Shown here: piece after piece, positions 7,226-25,085 of the stretch
Position numbering within the stretch: position 1 is the first letter of the stretch
How the letters are laid out: every line of letters starts with the position of its first letter
Origin: Candidatus Pacearchaeota archaeon
GTDB taxonomy: Archaea > Nanobdellota > Nanobdellia > Pacearchaeales > GW2011-AR1
DNA length: 64,000 nucleotides
Assembly (NCBI GenBank): GCA_018303825.1
Contig: JAGVXK010000021.1
Coordinates: 7,752 to 71,751, forward strand
Direction: 5' to 3'
Notes under the pieces: generated by a model
What the model saw: the letters and a program-made list of their open reading frames with translations, nothing else
Database searches by the model: none
Told to the model about the DNA's origin: nothing
Program-made: the position numbers and the translations under genes

Positions 7226-7864
7226 ATGATGCGGAGTATTTTTCAAATGACAGAACAAACACAAGAACAAAAAGGATTTAAGATATTCGACCTTTATGAC
7301 GTTTCTAATATAGAAATAAAGGACCCTGCATTGAAGCCATACATAAATCTTGCTCCAAAATTATTATTAAAAAGCCATGGAAGAATAAAAACTAAGCTCG
7401 CAAAGACAAAAGTTAATATTGTTGAGAGGCTGGCTGCAAGGTTGCAAGTTCCGGGGCATGTTGGAAAGAAACATAAAATAATAACATCATGGAGTTCTGG
7501 AAAATATAACAGAAATATGAAGACTGTTCTTGAAGTATTGAAGATAATTGAAAAGAAAACTGGAAAAAATCCTGTTCAGATCTTTGTAGCTGCTATTGAG
7601 AATGGCTCTCCTAGGGACGAGATTACAGTTATTGAGCATGCTGGAGCAAGATACCCCCAGGCAGTTGACTGTTCCCCAATAAGAAGAATAGACCTCGCAA
7701 TTAGATGGATGACTATTGGAGCTTATGGCAGATCTTTTGGGAAGAAAAAGAAAATGGCAGACTCTCTCGCAGAAGAAATTATGAGGGCAGGTGAAGGAAG
7801 CATGGAAAGCTATGCCTGCTCAAAAAGAAATGAATCTGAAAAACAGGCTGATTCGGCCAGATAA
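7226..7864 (+). CDS. rps7: 30S ribosomal protein S7 (uS7)
   Basis: Archaeal S7 blocks (NIVERLAARLQVPGH.., GSPRDEITVIEHAGARYPQAVDCSPIRRIDLAIRW). The start may be the internal Met at ~7247. Confidence 0.92.
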   Translation: MMRSIFQMTEQTQEQKGFKIFDLYDVSNIEIKDPALKPYINLAPKLLLKSHGRIKTKLAKTKVNIVERLAARLQVPGHVGKKHKIITSWSSGKYNRNMKTVLEVLKIIEKKTGKNPVQIFVAAIENGSPRDEITVIEHAGARYPQAVDCSPIRRIDLAIRWMTIGAYGRSFGKKKKMADSLAEEIMRAGEGSMESYACSKRNESEKQADSAR

Positions 7865-7872
7865 ATTCTTGT

Positions 7873-8634
7873 TTGCATTATATATATTCTTACAGACTAG
7901 GATTATGTTTAGAATTATGCTTAAACTTTCATAAATATTATATACTCTTTAAGTTATTTGATTTTGTGAGTTTAATTAAGAGGAGAGCATCGATTGCGGG
8001 AGCATTATTATTAGCTTGTTCTGCTTCTTTAGCTGAAGAGGATATTTTAAGAGTAAGCTCTAACGAAAGAGAAATTAAATTTTCTCTCCCAAGTGTAACA
8101 GATGAGCTAGGAATAGCAAAAATCAATTCGCAGTTAAAAATTCCTTATTCTAATGCTTATCTAGAAGGCAGGAAATTTGACCTTGAAAAAACAATCTTAG
8201 AGACAGGAATAACTTATCCAAGTATAATGGGCTTTTACACTGGAAATAGCGTTGGAATGAAAATTTCTCAGAATTTTGAAAAAAGCCAGAAAAGAACAGA
8301 TTCAGAAGGCTATTTATCGTCTTGGTTAAGCAGGAGAATTGCATTGACTGGCCTCTTGAGCATTGACTTAAGCTTGTTTTATAATCATTCTTTAGAATAT
8401 AATGCAGACAATCTGGGCATTAACTTATACAAAGGGGTACAATTGTATAAAAATATCTATATTGGGGTTAGTGGATATATGTTCTCAGACTTCAAAGGAT
8501 ATGCCTACCAAAGTATTAATTCTTCGTTATTATTTAGGTTAGGAGATTTTAATTTTTCTGTATTTATGGAAAAGAGAAAGGATAATTACAAAGAAGGACA
8601 ATATATGGGACTTACTGTAGGAAAGAAATTCTAA
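7873..8634 (+). CDS. Hypothetical secreted or lipobox-bearing beta-rich protein
   Basis: A likely GTG start at 7966 gives VSLIKRRASIAGALLLAC|S, i.e. a basic RR n-region, hydrophobic core and LLAC lipobox-like motif. The rest is rich in alternating aromatic and polar residues and ends ..GLTVGKKF. Confidence 0.5.
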   Translation: MHYIYSYRLGLCLELCLNFHKYYILFKLFDFVSLIKRRASIAGALLLACSASLAEEDILRVSSNEREIKFSLPSVTDELGIAKINSQLKIPYSNAYLEGRKFDLEKTILETGITYPSIMGFYTGNSVGMKISQNFEKSQKRTDSEGYLSSWLSRRIALTGLLSIDLSLFYNHSLEYNADNLGINLYKGVQLYKNIYIGVSGYMFSDFKGYAYQSINSSLLFRLGDFNFSVFMEKRKDNYKEGQYMGLTVGKKF

Positions 8635-17569: not shown

Positions 17570-17620
17570 AAAATAGTTGGCACGTTAAGAAAGCCCCTCG
17601 TGTCTTGAATATTTGTTCGT

Positions 17621-17694
17621 GAATCTCTCTTCGAGTGGAATTGACGGCTATTTTAAGTTTGGATTTATGATTTGCGGTGGTGGGAAGGTGCGCT
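17621..17694 (-). repeat. Island repeat, inverted partial copy (arm A)
   Basis: Perfect reverse complements of blocks in copy B: 17681-17694 vs 18145-18158 (14 bp), 17661-17675 vs 18218-18232 (15 bp), 17639-17647 vs 18244-18252 (9 bp). Confidence 0.75.
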
Positions 17695-17701
17695 TTGTGC
17701 A

Positions 17702-18091
17702 TCAAATAGCTACTAATATACTCTCTTTTGCTCTGCTAGTCTCATCTGCAAATGGAACACCTCTCTTGTCATTATACCATCCATATGTTTCTACTTTAGC
17801 TCTTTGTTCTGCAAGTTTCTTTGCAATATCATGTGTTCTTTGCTCCACATTTTCACATTCATCGACTATTCCAATAACGCCATGCACATGTTCAATTCTA
17901 ACTTGCGCTCTATTTTCAAGTAACAAAATAACATATTTGCCATCAATTGGTTTTTCTGGAGTAGCAACTACTATCGTATTCCATACGTCATCTCTTAAAG
18001 GGTTAAAAAATTTAAAAGCAGATATATATTTATAGCCATCATTCCGTTCTGGTTTCCTTTCCTGCAAAACAATCCTTGGTCCGCTACCCAT
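17702..18091 (-). CDS. Hypothetical protein (129 aa) bracketed by inverted repeat arms
   Basis: Balanced, charged composition. The overlapping + strand ORF 17613..18035 is Ser/Cys/Leu-rich and starts inside the repeat. Confidence 0.55.
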   Translation of the reverse strand: MGSGPRIVLQERKPERNDGYKYISAFKFFNPLRDDVWNTIVVATPEKPIDGKYVILLLENRAQVRIEHVHGVIGIVDECENVEQRTHDIAKKLAEQRAKVETYGWYNDKRGVPFADETSRAKESILVAI

Positions 18092-18144
18092 CTTTAAACA
18101 ATATTCATCGCCCTTTTAATTATTTCTATATTGTAAAATATGTT

Positions 18145-18423
18145 AGCGCACCTTCCCATTTCTTATTCATCAATTATTTCGCGAAGCGACTATTTAGGGG
18201 CGGGTGGTCGGGGGAATGCAAATCATAAATCCGTTTAATATTTCCGTCAATTACGTTTAAGCGAGATTAAACTGTCTGCTTTCTGATTTGGGAAAGGGCT
18301 TAAGCGTAACGAGAAGAGAGATTGAGAATTATTTTCATTCTGAAAATAACTTCCTATTTAATTTATAATATTAAGAAGCAAATTTCAAGTTCATTTAATC
18401 GTTCAGGCTAAAAGAACTTTCAA
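18145..18423 (+). repeat. Island repeat copy 1, 5' half (B); candidate structured RNA or MITE-like element
   Basis: Hairpin tcgc-gaa-gcga at 18179-18189. G-rich block at 18197-18214. Hairpin cgtttaagc/gcttaagcg at 18254-18262/18298-18306. 28-nt block at 18396-18423 identical to 22758-22785. Confidence 0.7.
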
Positions 18424-18485
18424 CCAAAAGAAGACAAATCCGAAAAATATATATACCATGATTTATCACTATATTCAATTAACTC

Positions 18486-18509
18486 CATGAGATCTGTAAG
18501 GATCTCATG
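18486..18509 (+). promoter_or_regulatory. Perfect 9-bp inverted repeat catgagatc-tgtaag-gatctcatg just upstream of the NYN gene start
   Basis: 18486-18494 pairs with 18501-18509. It ends 9 nt before the ATG at 18518. Confidence 0.35.
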
Positions 18510-18517
18510 TTTTTTAT

Positions 18518-19066
18518 ATGAATTCCAAAAAAGAGAAGGTTGCGATTTACATCGATGGTAGTAATTTATATTTCTCAATAAAAGATACATTCAATTGTAA
18601 AATTGACTTAGAAAAATTCTGTAAAAAATTAGTGAATGATGATGATTTAGCGAAGATTAATTATTATATTGCTCCTGTTGAGCAATTAGAAAATCCTAAA
18701 GCATACGCTCAACAGCAATCATTCTTTGAAAAATTAAGGAAAATTGATAAACTAAATCTAATTTTTGGCAGGCTAGAAAAGAGAAAGAAAGATGGAGAAA
18801 TATACCATGTAGAAAAAGCAACAGATGTAAATCTTGCCCTTGATTTGGCTTTAGATGCACAAAAAGGGGAATATGATAAGGCTCTTCTTATCTCAAATGA
18901 TGGTGACTTTTCTGGAGCGGTAACTGCCGCAGTCAGTTTCAAAAGAAAAGTCATTTATATTGCCATAGGCACCAACAAATCTATATCTTATCATTTGAAG
19001 AAAGTGGCATCTGCAACCTTTCGAATTAATAAGGAATTCATTGATGAATGTAAATTGGATGAGTAG
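18518..19066 (+). CDS. NYN-domain (LabA/DUF88-like) protein
   Basis: VAIYIDGSNLYFS.. at the N-terminus and ..ALLISNDGDFSGAV.. match the NYN/LabA-type nuclease fold pattern. Confidence 0.75.
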   Translation: MNSKKEKVAIYIDGSNLYFSIKDTFNCKIDLEKFCKKLVNDDDLAKINYYIAPVEQLENPKAYAQQQSFFEKLRKIDKLNLIFGRLEKRKKDGEIYHVEKATDVNLALDLALDAQKGEYDKALLISNDGDFSGAVTAAVSFKRKVIYIAIGTNKSISYHLKKVASATFRINKEFIDECKLDE

Positions 19067-19144
19067 AGTTTTCGGCTATTAGTATATGGTGAAAGTTGGG
19101 TTAAATCTCGTTTCGAACTAAGAGAACAATTATGGAATAATTGA

Positions 19145-19326
19145 GAGATTTACCTTTTAGCAGAGATTAGGCGAGTCTGAAAGACCTCGAGCTACGAACT
19201 AAGAGTCTCGAGTTAGCTAAACCTCACAAGAATGGGCTCTTTGCGTAATTGCTGAGAATCTTATGTTCTTAGGGCATTTCATTTGTATCTGTCGGGGGCG
19301 CGTTTTTGCTTCTCGCAGAAAATCTC
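19145..19326 (+). repeat. Island repeat copy 1, 3' half (C)
   Basis: gagattaggcgag at 19163-19175 (identical to 22884-22896). ctcgag/ctcgag stem at 19186-19191/19207-19212. cgtaattg at 19244-19251. G-rich arm gtcgggggc.. at 19291-19326. Confidence 0.7.
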
Positions 19327-19409
19327 TGATTTTCTGAGCCATCAAGAACTTTGTTCTTGAGGTTTTCTGAAAAAGAAGATTTTTTATATGTTGTTTATTA
19401 TTAATATCT

Positions 19410-19727
19410 ATGACTTATGCAGTTTATACAACTGAGAGTTTTGATAAAGAGGTTGAGAAATTGTCTGGAGGAGACCGAGAGATAATTCAGAAAATGTTTT
19501 TTAAGATTAAAGACAATCCTTACGCCAGTAACCAATTAAGATACAAGAATCTTAGAGAGAAGCGAATTAGAGAAAAAAGAGTTTATTTTCTAGTTTATGA
19601 TGATTTGCGAGCAGTTCTTATTGTTGCTATAAGCGGTAAGAAAGACCAACAAGCAACAATCAATCATATAATCAATTACTTTGATGATTATAAAGAATAC
19701 TTGGAAAAATTGCTAGGAAAAGATTAA
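19410..19727 (+). CDS. relE: RelE/ParE-family toxin
   Basis: 105 aa. The pattern ..EKRIREKRVYFLVYDDLRAVLIVAISGKKDQ.. is typical of RelE/ParE mRNA-interferase toxins. Confidence 0.7.
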   Translation: MTYAVYTTESFDKEVEKLSGGDREIIQKMFFKIKDNPYASNQLRYKNLREKRIREKRVYFLVYDDLRAVLIVAISGKKDQQATINHIINYFDDYKEYLEKLLGKD

Positions 19728-19879
19728 GCAACCTGTCTTACTCTGCCAGCTTTAACATCTTCTAAACTTGCCTTGAACTGCCTTAATAAATCAAAGTCTA
19801 TCTTTTCTAGCTCTCTGAGCATAGCTACTTGAGCCTTCATCTTCTCGTATTCATCTTTTGGTACCTTTACCATTTCCAT
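19724..19879 (-). CDS. Small antitoxin-like protein (51 aa), convergent with and overlapping relE by 4 nt
   Basis: MEMVKVPKDEYEKMKAQVAMLRELEKIDFDLLRQFKASLEDVKAGRV resembles the C-terminal ..DIKAGRV helices of Phd/YefM-type antitoxins. Below the ORF-track cutoff. Confidence 0.4.
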   Translation of the reverse strand: MEMVKVPKDEYEKMKAQVAMLRELEKIDFDLLRQFKASLEDVKAGRVRQVA

Positions 19880-19936
19880 AAATATTTCTAAGAATCAAAG
19901 TTTTTAAGCTTTCTGGAAGTCACTTTTGCCCCCTTG

Positions 19937-20258: not shown

Positions 20259-20429
20259 TTATTCTGCGGTGAGCCCTAAACTATCTTGATCTGGCAATGC
20301 ATCAGCATAGCAGTCATCTAACAATCTTTCATCAATTCTCTTCAAAGCCCTTCTTTCTCCAATAATTGGAATTGAATCTTTAACAAGTTCGACTAACGAA
20401 ATCTTTTTGTTATTTGCCTTCTCTTTCAT
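20259..20429 (-). CDS. Small hypothetical protein (56 aa), third gene of a minus-strand operon
   Basis: The ATG at 20429 lies 5 nt after the stop of 20435..21145. Translation: MKEKANNKKISLVELVKDSIPIIGERRALKRIDERLLDDCYADALPDQDSLGLTAE. Confidence 0.35.
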   Translation of the reverse strand: MKEKANNKKISLVELVKDSIPIIGERRALKRIDERLLDDCYADALPDQDSLGLTAE

Positions 20430-20434
20430 TTTTT

Positions 20435-21145
20435 CTAACCTCGTATTGAATCTTCTACAATTCTATTCACTTCTGAAAGTATGCGTTCCCTCGTTCTCTG
20501 ACCAAAAATCCTATGGATTAATGAACTATCGTCATAACTTTGTAAAACAAACTCAACATTTGGAGGAGATGTAAATTTCTTAAATCTTCTAAGGGGATAA
20601 ATAGTAGTAACTTTAACCACACAACCATTTTGTTCTCCACCATTTCTTCTTTCAAACAAATCTGTTTCTGCATTCTTTCCATATTCGTCTACTACTCGAT
20701 GGTCGTCTAATACTTGGAGGTATTGTAAATATGGAATTTGACCTTTAGGACAAACGTTTTTTGGTCTAAAACTAAAAGGTTCTTTGTTAATTTTATCTGC
20801 TACAAAGGTCAAGATGTCTTCGGGTGCCTTGAATAAATGTCTACCAAAATCCCTAAAATCTTGCCCTAAAATACCTATTTGAACGCCTTCCCTAGCAGAA
20901 AAACTATAATCTTTCTTTGTATCAAATTCTGTCCAAATATGCCCGCCTAGACTCTCTAAGTGCCCAGTACCATCCAGATGGTTTACAAGAAAAGCGGGCC
21001 AAGTTCCCTTATTGTAATATCCTACCTGACATCCTGTAATTCTTACATTGCCCATTCCATGCAAAAGGTACATTAAATGCTCTGGGCTAATACTATCAAA
21101 TATGGCACTGTTTTGTACTCTCTTATCATACTTTTGTTCAATCAT
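20435..21145 (-). CDS. Hypothetical protein (236 aa)
   Basis: Long ORF with normal composition. Its start overlaps the stop of the upstream gene (ATGA). His/Gly-rich segment HLDGTGHLESLGGHIW. No family recognised. Confidence 0.6.
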   Translation of the reverse strand: MIEQKYDKRVQNSAIFDSISPEHLMYLLHGMGNVRITGCQVGYYNKGTWPAFLVNHLDGTGHLESLGGHIWTEFDTKKDYSFSAREGVQIGILGQDFRDFGRHLFKAPEDILTFVADKINKEPFSFRPKNVCPKGQIPYLQYLQVLDDHRVVDEYGKNAETDLFERRNGGEQNGCVVKVTTIYPLRRFKKFTSPPNVEFVLQSYDDSSLIHRIFGQRTRERILSEVNRIVEDSIRG

Positions 21146-21723
21146 TTTCTTTCACCTCCGAATTTTTTCTGAAGAAAATCCAATGCTAGTTGCCTTTCTC
21201 TTTCTGATTCAAAAATAACAAGGGGCCTTGGCCAAGGTTTGTTACATTTTTTAATAAAAAATTCAAGCAGGGATTGATGAGAAGAAGCTAATAGATGATC
21301 AAACCCGCTAGGGGTTAAATCTGAGTAACCTGGTGTCATCGGGCGACCTATTTTGTCTGCGATAGAATTAACCTCATAGGGTCTTGGTGTGAATGATAAC
21401 GCATAAACCCTCAAACTATCTCCAAACCTACCTGTATTGACGTGCTGAATTAGGCATAATTGATCTCCCAAATAAAGATGCATTTGCATATCCATTTTAT
21501 CTCTTTCATCCGCATTACAATAAATACGCCCGCCAGGAACAACGGGTGATGCTCCGCATAGAGTTATTTCGCCAAACTGAGCAACCCTCTCTAAGTAAAT
21601 TGGACCCCCATCATTAAATCTCGGTGCACATAATGATAAGTTAACACTTCTCTCTCTACAAAAAATTGCGTTTGCCATTTCTTGATGGGCGTCTTTTCTT
21701 TCTATGTTTAATCTTATTCTCAT
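21142..21723 (-). CDS. Hypothetical protein (193 aa)
   Basis: First gene of the operon divergent from the TrmB-like gene at 21852. No family recognised. Confidence 0.6.
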   Translation of the reverse strand: MRIRLNIERKDAHQEMANAIFCRERSVNLSLCAPRFNDGGPIYLERVAQFGEITLCGASPVVPGGRIYCNADERDKMDMQMHLYLGDQLCLIQHVNTGRFGDSLRVYALSFTPRPYEVNSIADKIGRPMTPGYSDLTPSGFDHLLASSHQSLLEFFIKKCNKPWPRPLVIFESERERQLALDFLQKKFGGERK

Positions 21724-21851
21724 TTTCTATTTCTCCCAAGTTTATTTACTATCATAAGATAATGGCATAATAAAGTGTATTTAAATTATTGTTGTAAGGA
21801 AGCTATTAACAATTTAGAAAGAATTAAATATAACAATTCACTTGATTTTAT

Positions 21852-22565
21852 ATGGAAATAACTACACTCGAGAGTCTTGGAATGAACAAAACAGAGGCCA
21901 AAGTATATCTGGCTTTACTTGAATTGGGAGAAGTACAAGCAGGACAGATAAGTAAAAAATCAGGAGTTAATAGAACAAGCACGTATGATTCATTAGAAAG
22001 ACTAATATCGAAGGGTCTCGTTAAATATGTTATTCAATCAAATAAAAAGGTATTCGGGGCAGATAAACCCAATAAAATAGTTGAGCAATTAAAAGAACAG
22101 GAGAGAATAGCTAAGCAAATACTGCCAGAACTTAATAATTTGTTTAAAGAATCAAAAAAAGATGAGGAATCTGAGATCTATAAAGGCAGAAAAGGGATAA
22201 GGTCTATCTTGTTTGAAATAGTAAAATATAAAGAATATATTGCTTTTGGCTCAAAAGGCAAGTTTTTAGAGATAATGAAGCACGATTTTGAGATTTTTCA
22301 AAAAAGGAAGAAAAAATTAAAGATAAAAGCCAGAGTAATATTAAGAGAATCTGATAGGACTTCTGAATCTGTTAAGGTTGCTTATAGTGATTTTAAATTT
22401 GTTCCTGATGAATATGGATCTCCGACTACTACATTTGTTTATGGAAATAATATTGCCATAATTGTCTGGCTGTCTGAGCCAATCGCTACAGTAATAAAGA
22501 GTAAAGAGGTCGCTGAAAGCTATTCGCATTATTTTGAACTACTTTGGAAACTCGCAAAGCCCTAG
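21852..22565 (+). CDS. TrmB-family transcriptional regulator (paralog 1)
   Basis: The N-terminal winged helix LESLGMNKTEAKVYLALLELGEVQAGQISKKSGVNRTSTYDSLERLISKGLV is a typical TrmB HTH. Confidence 0.8.
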   Translation: MEITTLESLGMNKTEAKVYLALLELGEVQAGQISKKSGVNRTSTYDSLERLISKGLVKYVIQSNKKVFGADKPNKIVEQLKEQERIAKQILPELNNLFKESKKDEESEIYKGRKGIRSILFEIVKYKEYIAFGSKGKFLEIMKHDFEIFQKRKKKLKIKARVILRESDRTSESVKVAYSDFKFVPDEYGSPTTTFVYGNNIAIIVWLSEPIATVIKSKEVAESYSHYFELLWKLAKP

Positions 22566-23037
22566 ATGATACCTTCTTCGGCGTGAGCCGAAGCTCTCTG
22601 TGCGAAGCACCCAAGCCCCCGACCAATTTCTGTTTGACTGAAATGCCTACAATCAGCAATTTCGTTTAAGCTTGATTAAACCTTTGGATTTTTTGTTAGT
22701 GGCTTAAGCGGAGCAAAGAGCCAATTACTATTTTAAAGTTGAGGTTTACTTTTCGTCTAATCGTTCAGGCTAAAAGAACTTTCAAGGCAATTGTTAAAAG
22801 TCAAAATAATTGAAAGTTACAGAAAATTATGGTTTCCATAAAGGAAATACTTTAGGATAAAGTAAATAATTTTTCTTTTAGTGGAGATTAGGCGAGTCCA
22901 AAGGACCTCTTGGTGCGAATTAAGAGCCAAGAGTTAGTAAACCACAACGAAATATTTGCGAATAAGTGTAATTGCTGGCTATTTTGGTTTTGGGGCTGGC
23001 GAGGCGTTTTTCTAAGGGGCACTTTTTCCTAGTCTAA
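22566..23037 (+). repeat. Island repeat copy 2 (D), full length; candidate structured RNA or MITE-like element
   Basis: GNRA hairpin cttcggc-gtga-gccgaag at 22576-22593. gtgc-gaa-gcac at 22600-22610. C-rich block at 22611-22623. Hairpin at 22663-22671/22702-22710. 28-nt block at 22758-22785. gagattaggcgag at 22884-22896. Stem at 22907-22913/22927-22933. aattgctg at 22970-22977. G-rich arm at 22992-23027. Confidence 0.75.
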
Positions 23038-23544
23038 CTAGTTAATTAAAAACCTATAATAAGATGTAAGAAAATCCAAATTATCTTTAGGATTTATATT
23101 CATATTTCCCTCTCCTGTAAAAATAACCTTGTCCCTGAGAGGATATAATGGTGACGACCTAAACTCTACATATCCAACTCCCGCCACCCTAAACCATGGC
23201 TCAAAGTCATCATGACCACCCGTGGGCAAAATTATCCCATTTCTAATCTCACTCAAAATATGTACAATTTCTGATCTATCCCTCATTCTTGTCAATTTAG
23301 CAAAATTGAATTTTGTTATTGCATGTGCAACAAGCTTCCTATAAAACTCTGTGCCATACTCGTGATCTGAATTTGAATCGAAGTTCCTTCGACAAAAATG
23401 AAATTCCAGAGGATTTCCTTCAAAATTGGATGACTTAATCAAATTAAGACTATCTTCCAAAAACACGTCTAACGCATTCCGAATACACAACGGGTACTTA
23501 CCAACCCTTCTGAATATAAACGCGTCATCATATAACTTCTCCAT
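23038..23544 (-). CDS. Hypothetical protein (168 aa)
   Basis: Divergent from the TrmB-like gene at 23630. No family recognised. Confidence 0.6.
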   Translation of the reverse strand: MEKLYDDAFIFRRVGKYPLCIRNALDVFLEDSLNLIKSSNFEGNPLEFHFCRRNFDSNSDHEYGTEFYRKLVAHAITKFNFAKLTRMRDRSEIVHILSEIRNGIILPTGGHDDFEPWFRVAGVGYVEFRSSPLYPLRDKVIFTGEGNMNINPKDNLDFLTSYYRFLIN

Positions 23545-23629
23545 GAACTCTCTGTCTTGCCTAGTCTTTTAAATCTTAGTTGTTATTATTAATAACAACA
23601 TTTAAATAATCACTACAATAAAACTAATA

Positions 23630-24337
23630 ATGGAAGAACTCATAGAAAATTTAAAAATGGCCGGTCTAACTGGAAATGAATCAAAAGTTTACGTAGGTCT
23701 AATTAAGATTGGAGAAACTTCAGCCAACGAATTAGCAAAAAATCTGAGTTTAGACAGAACATTAACATATACTATTCTAAACCATTTAATAGAAAAGGGA
23801 ATGGTTGGCTATGTTATCAAAGCAAATAAAAAGTTCTTCTCGGCATCTGAACCACAAAACCTATTAAATAAAATAAAAAAAGATGAAACAGCGATAAAAA
23901 GAGTGATAGAAACTTTAAAAACAATGAAAACAACAAACGAGCCCTCCCCGAAAGTGAATGTTTATGATGGGAAAGAGGGACTCAGAACATTCTTAAGGCT
24001 TCTGACAAAAGATAAGAAGATTTCTGCATTTGGAGCGACAGGCAGATTATATGACTCTCTCTTCGAAACAGAAGCCATCGCAAAAGAATTAAAAAAAACA
24101 TTATCTGCTAGAATTATTGCTAGTAATAAATATCGCACCCATCCAATTAGGAAAATAAAGAGAATTGAAGTAAGATATTTAGATGTGGACAACGAGGCAA
24201 CAACAACCATTTTCGGAGATTATATTGCCCTACATCTTTTAACAGATAAACCATTCATAATAACAATCAAGAACAAAGAAATTGCGCATGGTTATCTAAA
24301 CTATTTCAATCTTCTCTGGAAAATCGCCAAGAAATAA
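23630..24337 (+). CDS. TrmB-family transcriptional regulator (paralog 2)
   Basis: LKMAGLTGNESKVYVGLIKIGETSANELAKNLSLDRTLTYTILNHLIEKGMV. Its C-terminus ..YLNYFNLLWKIAKK parallels ..YSHYFELLWKLAKP of paralog 1. Confidence 0.8.
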   Translation: MEELIENLKMAGLTGNESKVYVGLIKIGETSANELAKNLSLDRTLTYTILNHLIEKGMVGYVIKANKKFFSASEPQNLLNKIKKDETAIKRVIETLKTMKTTNEPSPKVNVYDGKEGLRTFLRLLTKDKKISAFGATGRLYDSLFETEAIAKELKKTLSARIIASNKYRTHPIRKIKRIEVRYLDVDNEATTTIFGDYIALHLLTDKPFIITIKNKEIAHGYLNYFNLLWKIAKK

Positions 24338-24797
24338 TCTGAAAAAGTGCCCCGTTCTGCTGTTTGATAATTATTGTTCGTATTTTCGCCAACAGGCGAC
24401 TATCTGTGCGTAGCACCACCGAGCCAGCCCCTATCGAACTTCCAGCAATTTTGTTTAAACTAGATTAAACGCTCTGCGTCTGATTTCTGAAAATGGTTTA
24501 AACGAAACGAATGAGCAAATCCCTAAAGAGGTTTACTTATCGTTTAATCGTTCGTAATAAGAGTGGTTTTAGCCATTAATACTTAAATCGTATGAGCTAA
24601 AACTAAGACTAAATTCCGTCTTTCTACTAAAGAAAGTATTTCAGGATGAAATAAGGAATTTATCTCTTATGTGAGATTAGCCGACCACTTTAGTAGCGCG
24701 AGCTGATTACGAAAATCCTCGCGACTTTTGCTTTGTTCTCAGCCGATTTCGAAGCGTAATTGCCAAGATTTATAAAGTAGTAGATTTTATTTAGATT
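24338..24797 (+). repeat. Island repeat copy 3 (E), near full length
   Basis: aaaaagtgcccc at 24342-24353. Hairpin tcgcc-aaca-ggcga at 24386-24399. gtgc-gta-gcac at 24406-24416. gccagcccc at 24423-24431. Hairpin gtttaaac/gtttaaac at 24453-24460/24496-24503. gagattagccgac at 24673-24685. Stem cgcgag/ctcgcg at 24697-24702/24718-24723. aattgc at 24758-24763. Confidence 0.75.
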
Positions 24798-25085
24798 ATG
24801 GGTTGGAAAAACTGGAGTTATTGGTTGAGAGGAGGTTTTTTGCTAGCAACGATTTACTTTATTTATACTTTACTTATAAATCAATTATATGGGACAGTTA
24901 TAAAAGCAGGATTATATCGCATATTATATGAGGTCGGATATCCCTTCAATTTTGTACGGTTTTTGGTTATGGGCTTTAATGAATCATTCATAGCCATAAT
25001 TTTCAGTTGGATAATTGCATATATTGTCTTTTTCCTTCTTGGAGCAATAATTGGTTGGATCGTTGGTAAAATAAAATCTAAGTAA
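24798..25085 (+). CDS. Small membrane protein (95 aa)
   Basis: Three hydrophobic segments. Flanked on both sides by island repeat copies. Confidence 0.55.
   Translation: MGWKNWSYWLRGGFLLATIYFIYTLLINQLYGTVIKAGLYRILYEVGYPFNFVRFLVMGFNESFIAIIFSWIIAYIVFFLLGAIIGWIVGKIKSK

Follow-up and report, generated by a model that had tools for sequence, protein, structure and literature searches.

Among described systems, two come close to the locus analysed here. The integron, for which criteria that include the archaeal integrons are available (Ghaly et al. 2022, PMC9668308), carries one attC site, an imperfect hairpin of 57-141 nt, at the 3' end of each gene cassette. TrmBL2 of the Thermococcales (PDB 5BQT, 5BPD, 5BOX) is a single-copy, chromatin-like repressor that acts genome-wide. 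We analysed a stretch of 64 kb (the window) from contig JAGVXK010000021.1 of a Candidatus Pacearchaeota archaeon, in which two regulator genes of the TrmB family, TrmB-1 and TrmB-2, are each divergently paired with small cargo genes and each followed by a large folded repeat, below called the element. We find that both units are enclosed by long, imperfect inverted repeats, each specific to its own unit. In our judgement it is an even bet that the two units are self-contained, self-regulated accessory cassettes in an integron-like array. Coordinates are those of the window unless a contig or locus is named; G000 is the genome of the window, G061 a second Pacearchaeota genome and G062 a Woesearchaeota genome. 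Every genome that we compared is a metagenome-assembled genome (MAG), and the number of modules consisting of a TrmB gene, cargo and element is five.

The borders of the cassettes emerged from duplex energies, which we computed for all combinations of tail and head among 14 copies of the element. If the tail of one copy and the head of the next flank the same cassette, their mean duplex energy is -69.7 kcal/mol (-79.1 kcal/mol for cassette 1, which ends with TrmB-1), compared with -57.5 +/- 8.4 kcal/mol for non-cognate pairs (n = 158). The head and the tail of one and the same copy pair at background level, with a mean of -55.2 kcal/mol. The paired blocks of both cassettes are given in Table 1. 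The outermost block (AATTGC / GCAATT) is common to all copies and the inner blocks are private to each cassette; therefore, the part with which the element begins at each TrmB stop codon is the right arm of the inverted repeat belonging to that cassette. A generic inverted-repeat scan was swamped by AT-rich noise, and the targeted test of tails against heads took its place.

The element itself is about 450 nt long and non-coding. Using nhmmer, we found five full, two split and several fragmentary copies in the host genome (806 kb in 23 contigs, G+C about 35%). All of them lie in two islands, one at about 17.6-25.2 kb of the window and the other on contig C18, and inside each island they are co-oriented. 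Downstream of each regulator there are about 460 nt without open reading frames (ORFs), in which conserved blocks are interspersed with variable, compensating stretches. A previous reading of the sequence alone had placed a full copy at or within 1 nt of each regulator's stop codon. This is correct for the position of copy A, which begins at 22566, the base after the TrmB-1 stop; the alignment of copy B begins at 24340, 3 nt after the TrmB-2 stop. Copies do follow both regulators, but copy A lacks the first ~36 model positions at its 5' end, and the copies have diverged and are not a plain repeat.

Outside the host, strong arrays were found in the Pacearchaeota MAG from RIFCSP groundwater (G061, 4 copies) and in the Woesearchaeota MAG (G062, 8 copies). 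With a home-made covariance model of the 150-nt core, whose E-values are rough, we also detected single, weakly scoring copies in four further genera of the family. In Rfam 15, tRNAs alone reach gathering scores in the window, and there is no meaningful match at E up to 10 over 22400-24900; the element loci of the relatives have no Rfam match either. We were not able to find a description of the element in the literature that we searched. A public scan for the motif TAATCGTTC-N4-TAARAG-N3-TTT was too loose: the covariance model confirmed 2 of its 118 loci, and most matches were in a Prochlorococcus gene.

The fold of the core is well supported by covariation. Over 18 copies, 93.8% of the cells are paired and compensatory changes are seen at 31 of the 48 pairs, a level that none of 500 shuffles reaches and that compares with 34-50% in slid controls. 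The underlying alignment was fitted to the covariance model, which favours pairing, but the margin is large. Since G.U pairs outnumber A.C mismatches (41 vs 12), it is the sense strand, i.e. the strand of TrmB, that folds. Such a fold would be compatible with RNA and with single-stranded DNA alike, and thus does not distinguish between them. The two split copies are interrupted at one and the same hairpin loop, which holds a NYN gene in one copy and, in the other, a two-gene pair that resembles a toxin-antitoxin system.

Some further observations concern the element copies and the cassettes around them. A segment that consists of a split element copy, a RelE-like gene, a 51-aa antitoxin-like ORF and a 45-aa AbrB-like ORF occurs twice in the genome (window 18147-19285; C18 17597-18352, which is L001 11598-12353), with protein identities of 42%, 52% and 88%; the cargo in the loop differs, being NYN in the window and a pair of 68 and 67 aa on C18. 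The two-gene pair found in the loop shows 84% identity when G000 is compared with the Pacearchaeota MAG (L001 11820-12232; L186 5755-6161; L189 5700-6217). The RelE-like cassette is 70-82% identical across three genomes; for the housekeeping DNA polymerase B the value is 62% between G000 and G062. These identities are hints that the RelE-like and the loop-pair cassettes may have been exchanged or are unusually constrained. The cassette after copy B consists of one small membrane-protein gene (24798-25085), and the Pacearchaeota array (L186 1029-1499) shows the same order of TrmB, element and membrane protein. The membrane proteins end in ...GWVFKKNKI (Pacearchaeota) and ...GWIVGKIKSK (window). 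Judging by this order, the stretch from TrmB-2 to the membrane protein may be syntenic between the two genomes.

Next, we asked what kind of regulators TrmB-1 and TrmB-2 are. Both ORFs were confirmed as members of the Pfam TrmB family (PF01978; E 2.9e-17 and 1.8e-12, 62.7 and 47.4 bits, gathering cut-off 25.6), and the N-terminal helix-turn-helix (HTH) and C-terminal YF.LLWK.AK blocks which the sequence-only reading had seen in both are part of a full-length alignment with 32% identity. PDB entry 3QPH aligns to residues 6-117 of TrmB-1. An AlphaFold2 (AF2) model of TrmB-1, built from an alignment of 29 sequences, has a mean predicted local distance difference test (pLDDT) score of 92.4, and a Foldseek search with this model puts TrmBL2 chains in the first eight places (E 4.5e-14 to 1.6e-12, about 260 aligned columns; best 5BQT/5BPD). 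The C-terminal domain also resembles the nucleases NucT and SauUSI, which have a phospholipase D (PLD) fold; the HxK..D motif is found in none of 29 TrmB homologues. According to the model, the regulators are of the TrmBL2 type, with a winged helix, a coiled coil and a non-catalytic PLD-like domain, and without a sugar-binding barrel.

The classical sugar sensors TrmB and TrmBL1 are about 340 aa long and carry this extra barrel. Our regulators have 235-237 aa, and as the model ends after the PLD-like domain, it indicates that they are not such sensors. The NCBIfam equivalogs of the sugar-sensing TrmB and TrmBL1 give 48 and 42 bits against cut-offs of 600-650, with the match confined to the N-terminal half. 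On the other hand, the NCBIfam equivalog of TrmBL2 gives 18-21 bits (cut-off 530), so that the regulators, despite their TrmBL2 architecture, are not TrmBL2 orthologues. They share with the TrmBL2 of Thermococcales a similar length and the same three-part architecture with its non-catalytic end, but only 14-18% of sequence identity. They also differ in number: the subfamily is multicopy here, and each copy has its own divergent neighbour. In the tree, TrmB-2 sits on a long branch inside the same subfamily as TrmB-1, and by their sequences the two are old paralogues.

Of 61 related genomes, 41 contain the subfamily, and the copy number reaches 10 in genomes of 0.6-1.4 Mb. At 21 of 28 subfamily loci of relatives, where the element is absent, there is a divergent upstream gene across a spacer of 64-200 nt. 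Nine out of ten of these partners have no Pfam family; the genes paired with the subfamily are of many kinds, an AAA_28 protein and a solute-binding-like protein among them. A third subfamily member of the host, on contig C5, is likewise paired with a divergent gene and has no element. The divergent pairing with unknown genes is thus a general habit of this expanded subfamily, with or without the element, and the expansion together with one private divergent neighbour per copy points to local regulators. Conservation of the cargo along with TrmB was considered and rejected, since the closest TrmB-1 orthologue (61% identity, in G029) has a different divergent partner.

In four of the five element-linked modules we see a palindrome between divergent TATA-like boxes, and each palindrome is different. 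Most likely, a dimer of the TrmBL2-type regulator would bind the palindrome in the shared spacer of 85-128 nt and would control its own gene as well as the cargo, which consists of one to three small cytoplasmic proteins unique to the lineage. The TrmB-type proteins would then be local, autoregulating repressors or activators of the divergent cargo.

What is the cargo? The 193-, 236-, 56- and 168-aa ORFs have no match in Pfam, NCBIfam, PADLOC or PHROGs, in line with the statement of the sequence-only reading that each regulator faces genes of no nameable family. With PADLOC-DB 2.0 models, we found no match for the four at E up to 0.1. Among 5.8 billion clusters the 193-, 236- and 168-aa proteins match only themselves, sequence searches of the PDB gave no relatives for these three, and no nuclease, ATPase or other effector motif was recognised in the cargo. 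Residues 13-70 of the 236-aa protein weakly resemble an immunoglobulin (Ig)-like adhesin repeat, at about 26% identity per repeat (phmmer, 1.84e9 representatives). The phmmer matches are giant adhesin-type Ig-repeat proteins only, and their low summed E-value stems from the repetition, which makes this a weak lead. A single-sequence AF2 model of the protein was unusable (mean pLDDT 31.6). None of the cargo genes belongs to an ordinary metabolic family, and the regulators have no sugar-sensing part.

The ORFs facing TrmB-1 had been described as an operon with ATGA-coupled starts. This holds for the junction of the 193- and 236-aa genes (overlap at 21142-21145), but the 56-aa gene starts 5 nt past the stop of the 236-aa gene. 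The codon adaptation index of the cargo is 0.66-0.74 in frame; shifted frames give 0.53-0.62 for the three larger ORFs and 0.60-0.65 for the 56-aa ORF. In single ORFs it is 0.737 (shifted 0.65/0.60) for 56 aa, 0.684 (0.54/0.53) for 193 aa and 0.658 (0.57/0.62) for 168 aa. The G+C content at third codon positions is lower than the overall G+C content, and codon usage lies within about 2 sd of the genome mean. The proteins of the island are present on 18 contigs from groundwater metagenomes. All seven loci that we fetched are 100% identical across the island; they represent one clonal population and yield no signal of dN/dS or of cassette presence and absence. Three points lead us to take the cargo ORFs for real genes, which look translated: the index is higher in frame than out of frame, their codon usage resembles that of the host, and seven assemblies conserve the locus fully.

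A module of regulator, variable cargo and element, as the sequence-only reading had seen it twice in the window, is present in five instances across three DPANN genomes; the cargo is unrelated, and the TrmB genes come from different lineages. In all five cases a co-oriented gene of the TrmB subfamily lies directly 5' of the element (twice in the window; 256 and 248 aa in G061; 260 aa in G062), the head of the element begins 0-35 nt past the TrmB stop, and the regulator is divergent from one to three small unknown ORFs that are unrelated among modules. Half of the full-length subfamily members in the three element-bearing genomes (5/10) are linked to the element. As about 23 of some 2,400 genes (~1%) are in such a position, about 0.1 would be expected by our arithmetic. 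The enrichment beyond chance is strong.

The element is, however, not bound to the regulator. On a simple ORF map, the gene at the head side is co-oriented with the element in about 19 of 23 copies, but for about 18 of the 23 the preceding gene is not a TrmB; these genes include a methyltransferase, an Lrp-like regulator and membrane proteins. The element is therefore a feature of the array and not of the regulator. It is absent at 29 TrmB loci of relatives. The five linked TrmBs are not monophyletic: at least three to four changes are required on the tree, and shuffled labels do equally well in 107 of 500 trials. For this reason we rejected a joint duplication of TrmB and element.

How does such an array compare with an integron? 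As in integron arrays and CALINs (clusters of attC sites lacking integron-integrases), small unrelated genes, often unknown or of toxin-antitoxin type, are stacked between sites on the same strand. The sites keep a strand-specific single-strand fold more than a sequence, and there, too, arrays occur without a nearby integrase. However, an attC is one local hairpin at the 3' end of the cassette, whereas here the arms flank the cassette, the tail of one copy pairing with the head of the next, and the element, whose core has several helices, is some 450 nt long. Most integron cassettes are single ORFs that lack a promoter and share one orientation; the TrmB cassettes have 2-7 genes, distributed over both strands, and contain divergent promoter regions of their own. 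Some neighbouring cassettes have a single ORF (p95, and a 97-aa ORF on C18). We found no integron integrase beside the arrays of G000, G061 and G062, the IntI-specific domain not having been searched for. In summary, membership in the integrons fails on every feature tested, namely integrase, size and geometry of the site, and cassette content, and the likeness is a functional one only. Group I and II introns with loop ORFs are likewise large folded elements whose conserved helices carry genes in their apical loops, but here no Rfam intron model matches at E up to 10 over 22400-24900, the copies are intergenic, and the cargo is neither a homing endonuclease nor a reverse transcriptase.

How might the cassettes have arisen? 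The arms could once have formed a single site, a hairpin or palindrome, into which a gene cassette was inserted and which was thereby divided, in parallel to the NYN and toxin-antitoxin cassettes in the loop of the element's internal hairpin. Private arms flanking a cassette, with shared arms outside, would be expected if circular, palindrome-bearing cassettes had entered the centre or loop of a hairpin. The array would then resemble an integron in function, keeping accessory genes that can be swapped, but would be made of different parts; TrmB modules would be one favoured kind of cassette because they bring along their own switch.

A bolder version, which we put forward tentatively and would not expect to hold, sees in the TrmB modules mobile cassettes with their own regulation, belonging to an archaeal platform for gene capture that has not been described before. 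Here a recombinase of the Xer type, lacking the IntI domain, would act in trans; it would place circular cassettes in the centre or loop of the long hairpin sites that a structured core of about 300 nt carries. The private halves of the palindrome would be left flanking each cassette after insertion, and a fixed polarity of recombination would explain why TrmB is always at the head side. Such a platform fits the observation that in two related genera a single element-like core lies upstream of a Xer-sized gene on the same strand (0.6 kb in G011, 1.6 kb in G036; Table 1). The G036 copy also carries the GGGGCGGGTAGTCGGGGG head motif.

Several results speak against these proposals. There are no tyrosine recombinases on the array contigs of G000, G061 and G062; G000 has two, both Xer-sized, at C4:19377 and C5:17891 only. 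The seven assemblies examined are identical and show no empty site, excised circle or cassette polymorphism. In our controls, the non-cognate arms share a family consensus, and some of the complementarity is therefore generic. In five out of five modules TrmB lies on the head side (p about 0.03), which a model of purely random cassettes does not predict. The rule that head-side genes are co-oriented does not alone explain this, since the cargo end could satisfy it equally well. There may thus be some functional coupling between TrmB and the element. Finally, the element could just as well be a functional RNA, with RNA helices formed by the long-range arms.

Searches for the machinery gave the following further results. 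No sequence like the head of the element was found near the Xer genes on C4 or C5, and a Pfam scan revealed no transposase-like protein in either cassette. As a dif-like site, the pattern TTTAA-N6-TTARR (arm-6-arm) is not specific, with 47 matches where about 51 are expected. Ideas of a retroelement or of a TnpB guide RNA were dropped, since a reverse transcriptase occurs in G000 alone, on a contig without an array, and TnpB is absent. As separate observations, a palindrome with 12-bp arms (AACGGATATTAA...TTAAATATCCGTT) stands immediately before the recombinase gene of G011, and the reverse-transcriptase gene of G000 (C20 55852-56473) is broken by an in-frame TGA.

Among the other explanations, we examined whether the element is a functional structured RNA, co-transcribed as a long 3' extension of TrmB or another upstream gene, so that regulator, cargo and RNA form one system. 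It is consistent with the fold on the sense strand, the same as that of TrmB, with the close spacing behind the stop codon in all five modules, with the co-oriented genes that precede about 19 of 23 copies, and with the constant head-side position of TrmB (5/5, p ~0.03). Furthermore, there is no oligo-T tract after the TrmB-1 stop, and T4-T5 tracts are found in the tail of the element. But most copies (~18/23) follow unrelated genes, 29 TrmB loci of relatives lack the element, the linked TrmBs are not a clade, and no Rfam family corresponds to it. Pairing of the arms across cassettes of 1.3-3.3 kb with genes on both strands would be awkward for one RNA. We consider this explanation doubtful. 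Mere adjacency, in which a repeat fills the intergenic space of a compact genome with local TrmB paralogues, is quite improbable. The genome is indeed very compact, the copies occupy whole intergenic gaps and abut many kinds of genes, and TrmB is common here, with five genes over the Pfam cut-off in 0.8 Mb. Yet five of ten subfamily genes are linked to the element where about 0.1 would be expected, the orientation is the same in all five, and cassette-specific inverted repeats with compensatory differences surround the modules. At just 32% identity, the two TrmBs are not a recent tandem duplication that carried the element with it.

The sequence-only reading had compared the modules to accessory or defence-type cassettes. 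That they are discrete units, each inside its own inverted repeat, has been borne out; a role in defence has found no direct support, the cargo having no PADLOC match and only the neighbouring cassettes being toxin-antitoxin-like. An anti-virus or abortive-infection role, with TrmB silencing toxic or defensive ORFan effectors until a trigger arrives, is improbable in our view. In its favour, the cargo is fast-evolving and unique to its lineage, the island contains cassettes of toxin-antitoxin type (RelE-like, AbrB-like, NYN), VapC/PIN is found in G061, and the related element-like locus in G036 adjoins a restriction-modification pair. HTH regulators of the TrmB type weakly match CRISPR-associated HTH models, but these PADLOC matches are to generic HTH at E ~1e-3. 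PHROGs gave nothing for the cargo, no effector motif was recognised in it, and the same TrmB subfamily partners many kinds of genes (AAA_28, solute-binding-like). Least probable of all, in our opinion, is that the element is a non-autonomous mobile element similar to repetitive extragenic palindromes (REP) or miniature inverted-repeat transposable elements (MITE), spread as single-stranded DNA by an HUH (Y1) transposase, with the cassettes being just the genes between insertions. Strand-specific folding would fit hairpins of single-stranded DNA too, and Y1/HUH transposase genes exist in G000 (C17) and G061, away from the arrays. However, G062 has no Y1 gene despite its 8 copies and none lies near the arrays; the 450 nt with a multi-branched conserved core are far above the size of REP-type elements. 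The copies are clustered, co-oriented and diverged instead of dispersed and near-identical, and the arms pair across genes and not across the element. The gene on C17 (12284-12649) is of the IS200 type.

What is best supported is a description in two layers. The combination of a divergent TrmBL2-type regulator, lineage-specific cargo and a private palindrome is the ordinary layer, previously uncharacterised for these organisms. In the unusual layer these modules, along with toxin-antitoxin and single-gene units, form cassettes bracketed by inverted repeats between large element copies with a strand-specific fold.

Table 1. Positions of cassettes, regulators, element copies, paired arm blocks and related loci (window coordinates unless a contig or locus is named).
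Feature	Position	Strand	Remarks
Left inverted-repeat arm, cassette 1	19247-19319	+	in tail of upstream NYN-split element copy; blocks AATTGCTGA, GGCATTTCA, GTCGGGGGC, TGCTTCTCGCAGA; pairs with 22597-22661
56-aa cargo ORF	20259-20429	-	third and final operon gene
236-aa cargo ORF	20435-21145	-	ORFan; middle operon gene
193-aa cargo ORF	21142-21723	-	ORFan; first operon gene
Divergent promoter region, TrmB-1/193-aa gene	21724-21851		128 nt
Candidate operator, TrmB-1	21788-21813		ATTGTT-N14-AACAAT between TATA-like boxes; palindrome scan, putative function
TrmB-1, TrmBL2-type regulator	21852-22565	+	Pfam TrmB; predicted by AF2 fold
Element copy A	22566-23037	+	nhmmer E 2.6e-100; covariance model 148 bits
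Copy A, head with right arm of cassette 1	22597-22661
Copy A, core	22750-22898
Copy A, tail with left arm of cassette 2	22970-23028
168-aa cargo ORF	23038-23544	-	ORFan; divergent from TrmB-2; stop 10 nt from left arm of cassette 2
Divergent spacer, TrmB-2/168-aa gene	23545-23629		85 nt
Candidate operator, TrmB-2	23579-23599		perfect palindrome GTTGTTATTA-T-TAATAACAAC, flanked on either side by a divergent TATA-like box; putative function
TrmB-2	23630-24337	+	paralogue of TrmB-1
Element copy B	24340-24796	+	nhmmer E 1.4e-108; covariance model 153.5 bits
Copy B, head with right arm of cassette 2	24341-24450
Copy B, core	24537-24687
Copy B, tail			adjoins start of 95-aa membrane-protein gene (24798)
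Paired block, cassette 1 (RelE-like ... TrmB-1)	left 19307-19319, right 22597-22609		left TGCTTCTCGCAGA, 11/13
Paired block, cassette 1	left 19291-19299, right 22615-22623		left GTCGGGGGC
Paired block, cassette 1	left 19273-19281, right 22639-22647		left GGCATTTCA
Paired block, cassette 1	left 19247-19255, right 22653-22661		left AATTGCTGA
Paired block, cassette 2 (p168 + TrmB-2)	left 23016-23028, right 24341-24353		left GGGGCACTTTTTC, 13/13; right GAAAAAGTGCCCC, exact complement
Paired block, cassette 2	left 22992-23000, right 24423-24431		left GGGGCTGGC
Paired block, cassette 2	left 22970-22978, right 24442-24450		left AATTGCTGG
Candidate operators, two Pacearchaeota modules			GCCCCCT-T-AGGGGGC and CCCC-GTTA-GGGG; palindrome scan
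Element-like core and recombinase, G011:C52	core L024 53-233; recombinase 559-1400
Element-like core and recombinase, G036:C7	core L021 9787-9909; recombinase 7623-8468

Three observations lie outside the two cassettes. On contig C4 (16772-17158) there is a 51%-identical paralogue of the island's 129-aa ORF, 2 kb from a Xer-type gene (19089-19910) and without an element. A TrmB gene with its 105-aa divergent partner on C5 (13353-14540) is 3 kb from another Xer-type gene (17582-18421), again with no element in the region. In the window itself, Rfam places at 57592-57719 on the minus strand a tRNA with a 55-nt insertion in the anticodon loop, probably an archaeal intron, which ARAGORN does not report.

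The DPANN archaea have tiny genomes and yet carry fast-changing islands of unknown genes, and the locus described here shows a repeatable block, in which a switch and its candidate private operator are combined with orphan cargo. Should the cassettes prove mobile, they would represent a gene-capture system that works like an integron, with other parts and with cassettes that bring their own regulation. Independent of mobility, our results indicate that the expanded subfamily of TrmB proteins of 235-260 aa consists of local regulators of lineage-specific genes and not of sugar sensors. This subfamily offers a starting point from which orphan genes important to these symbionts can be found and tested.

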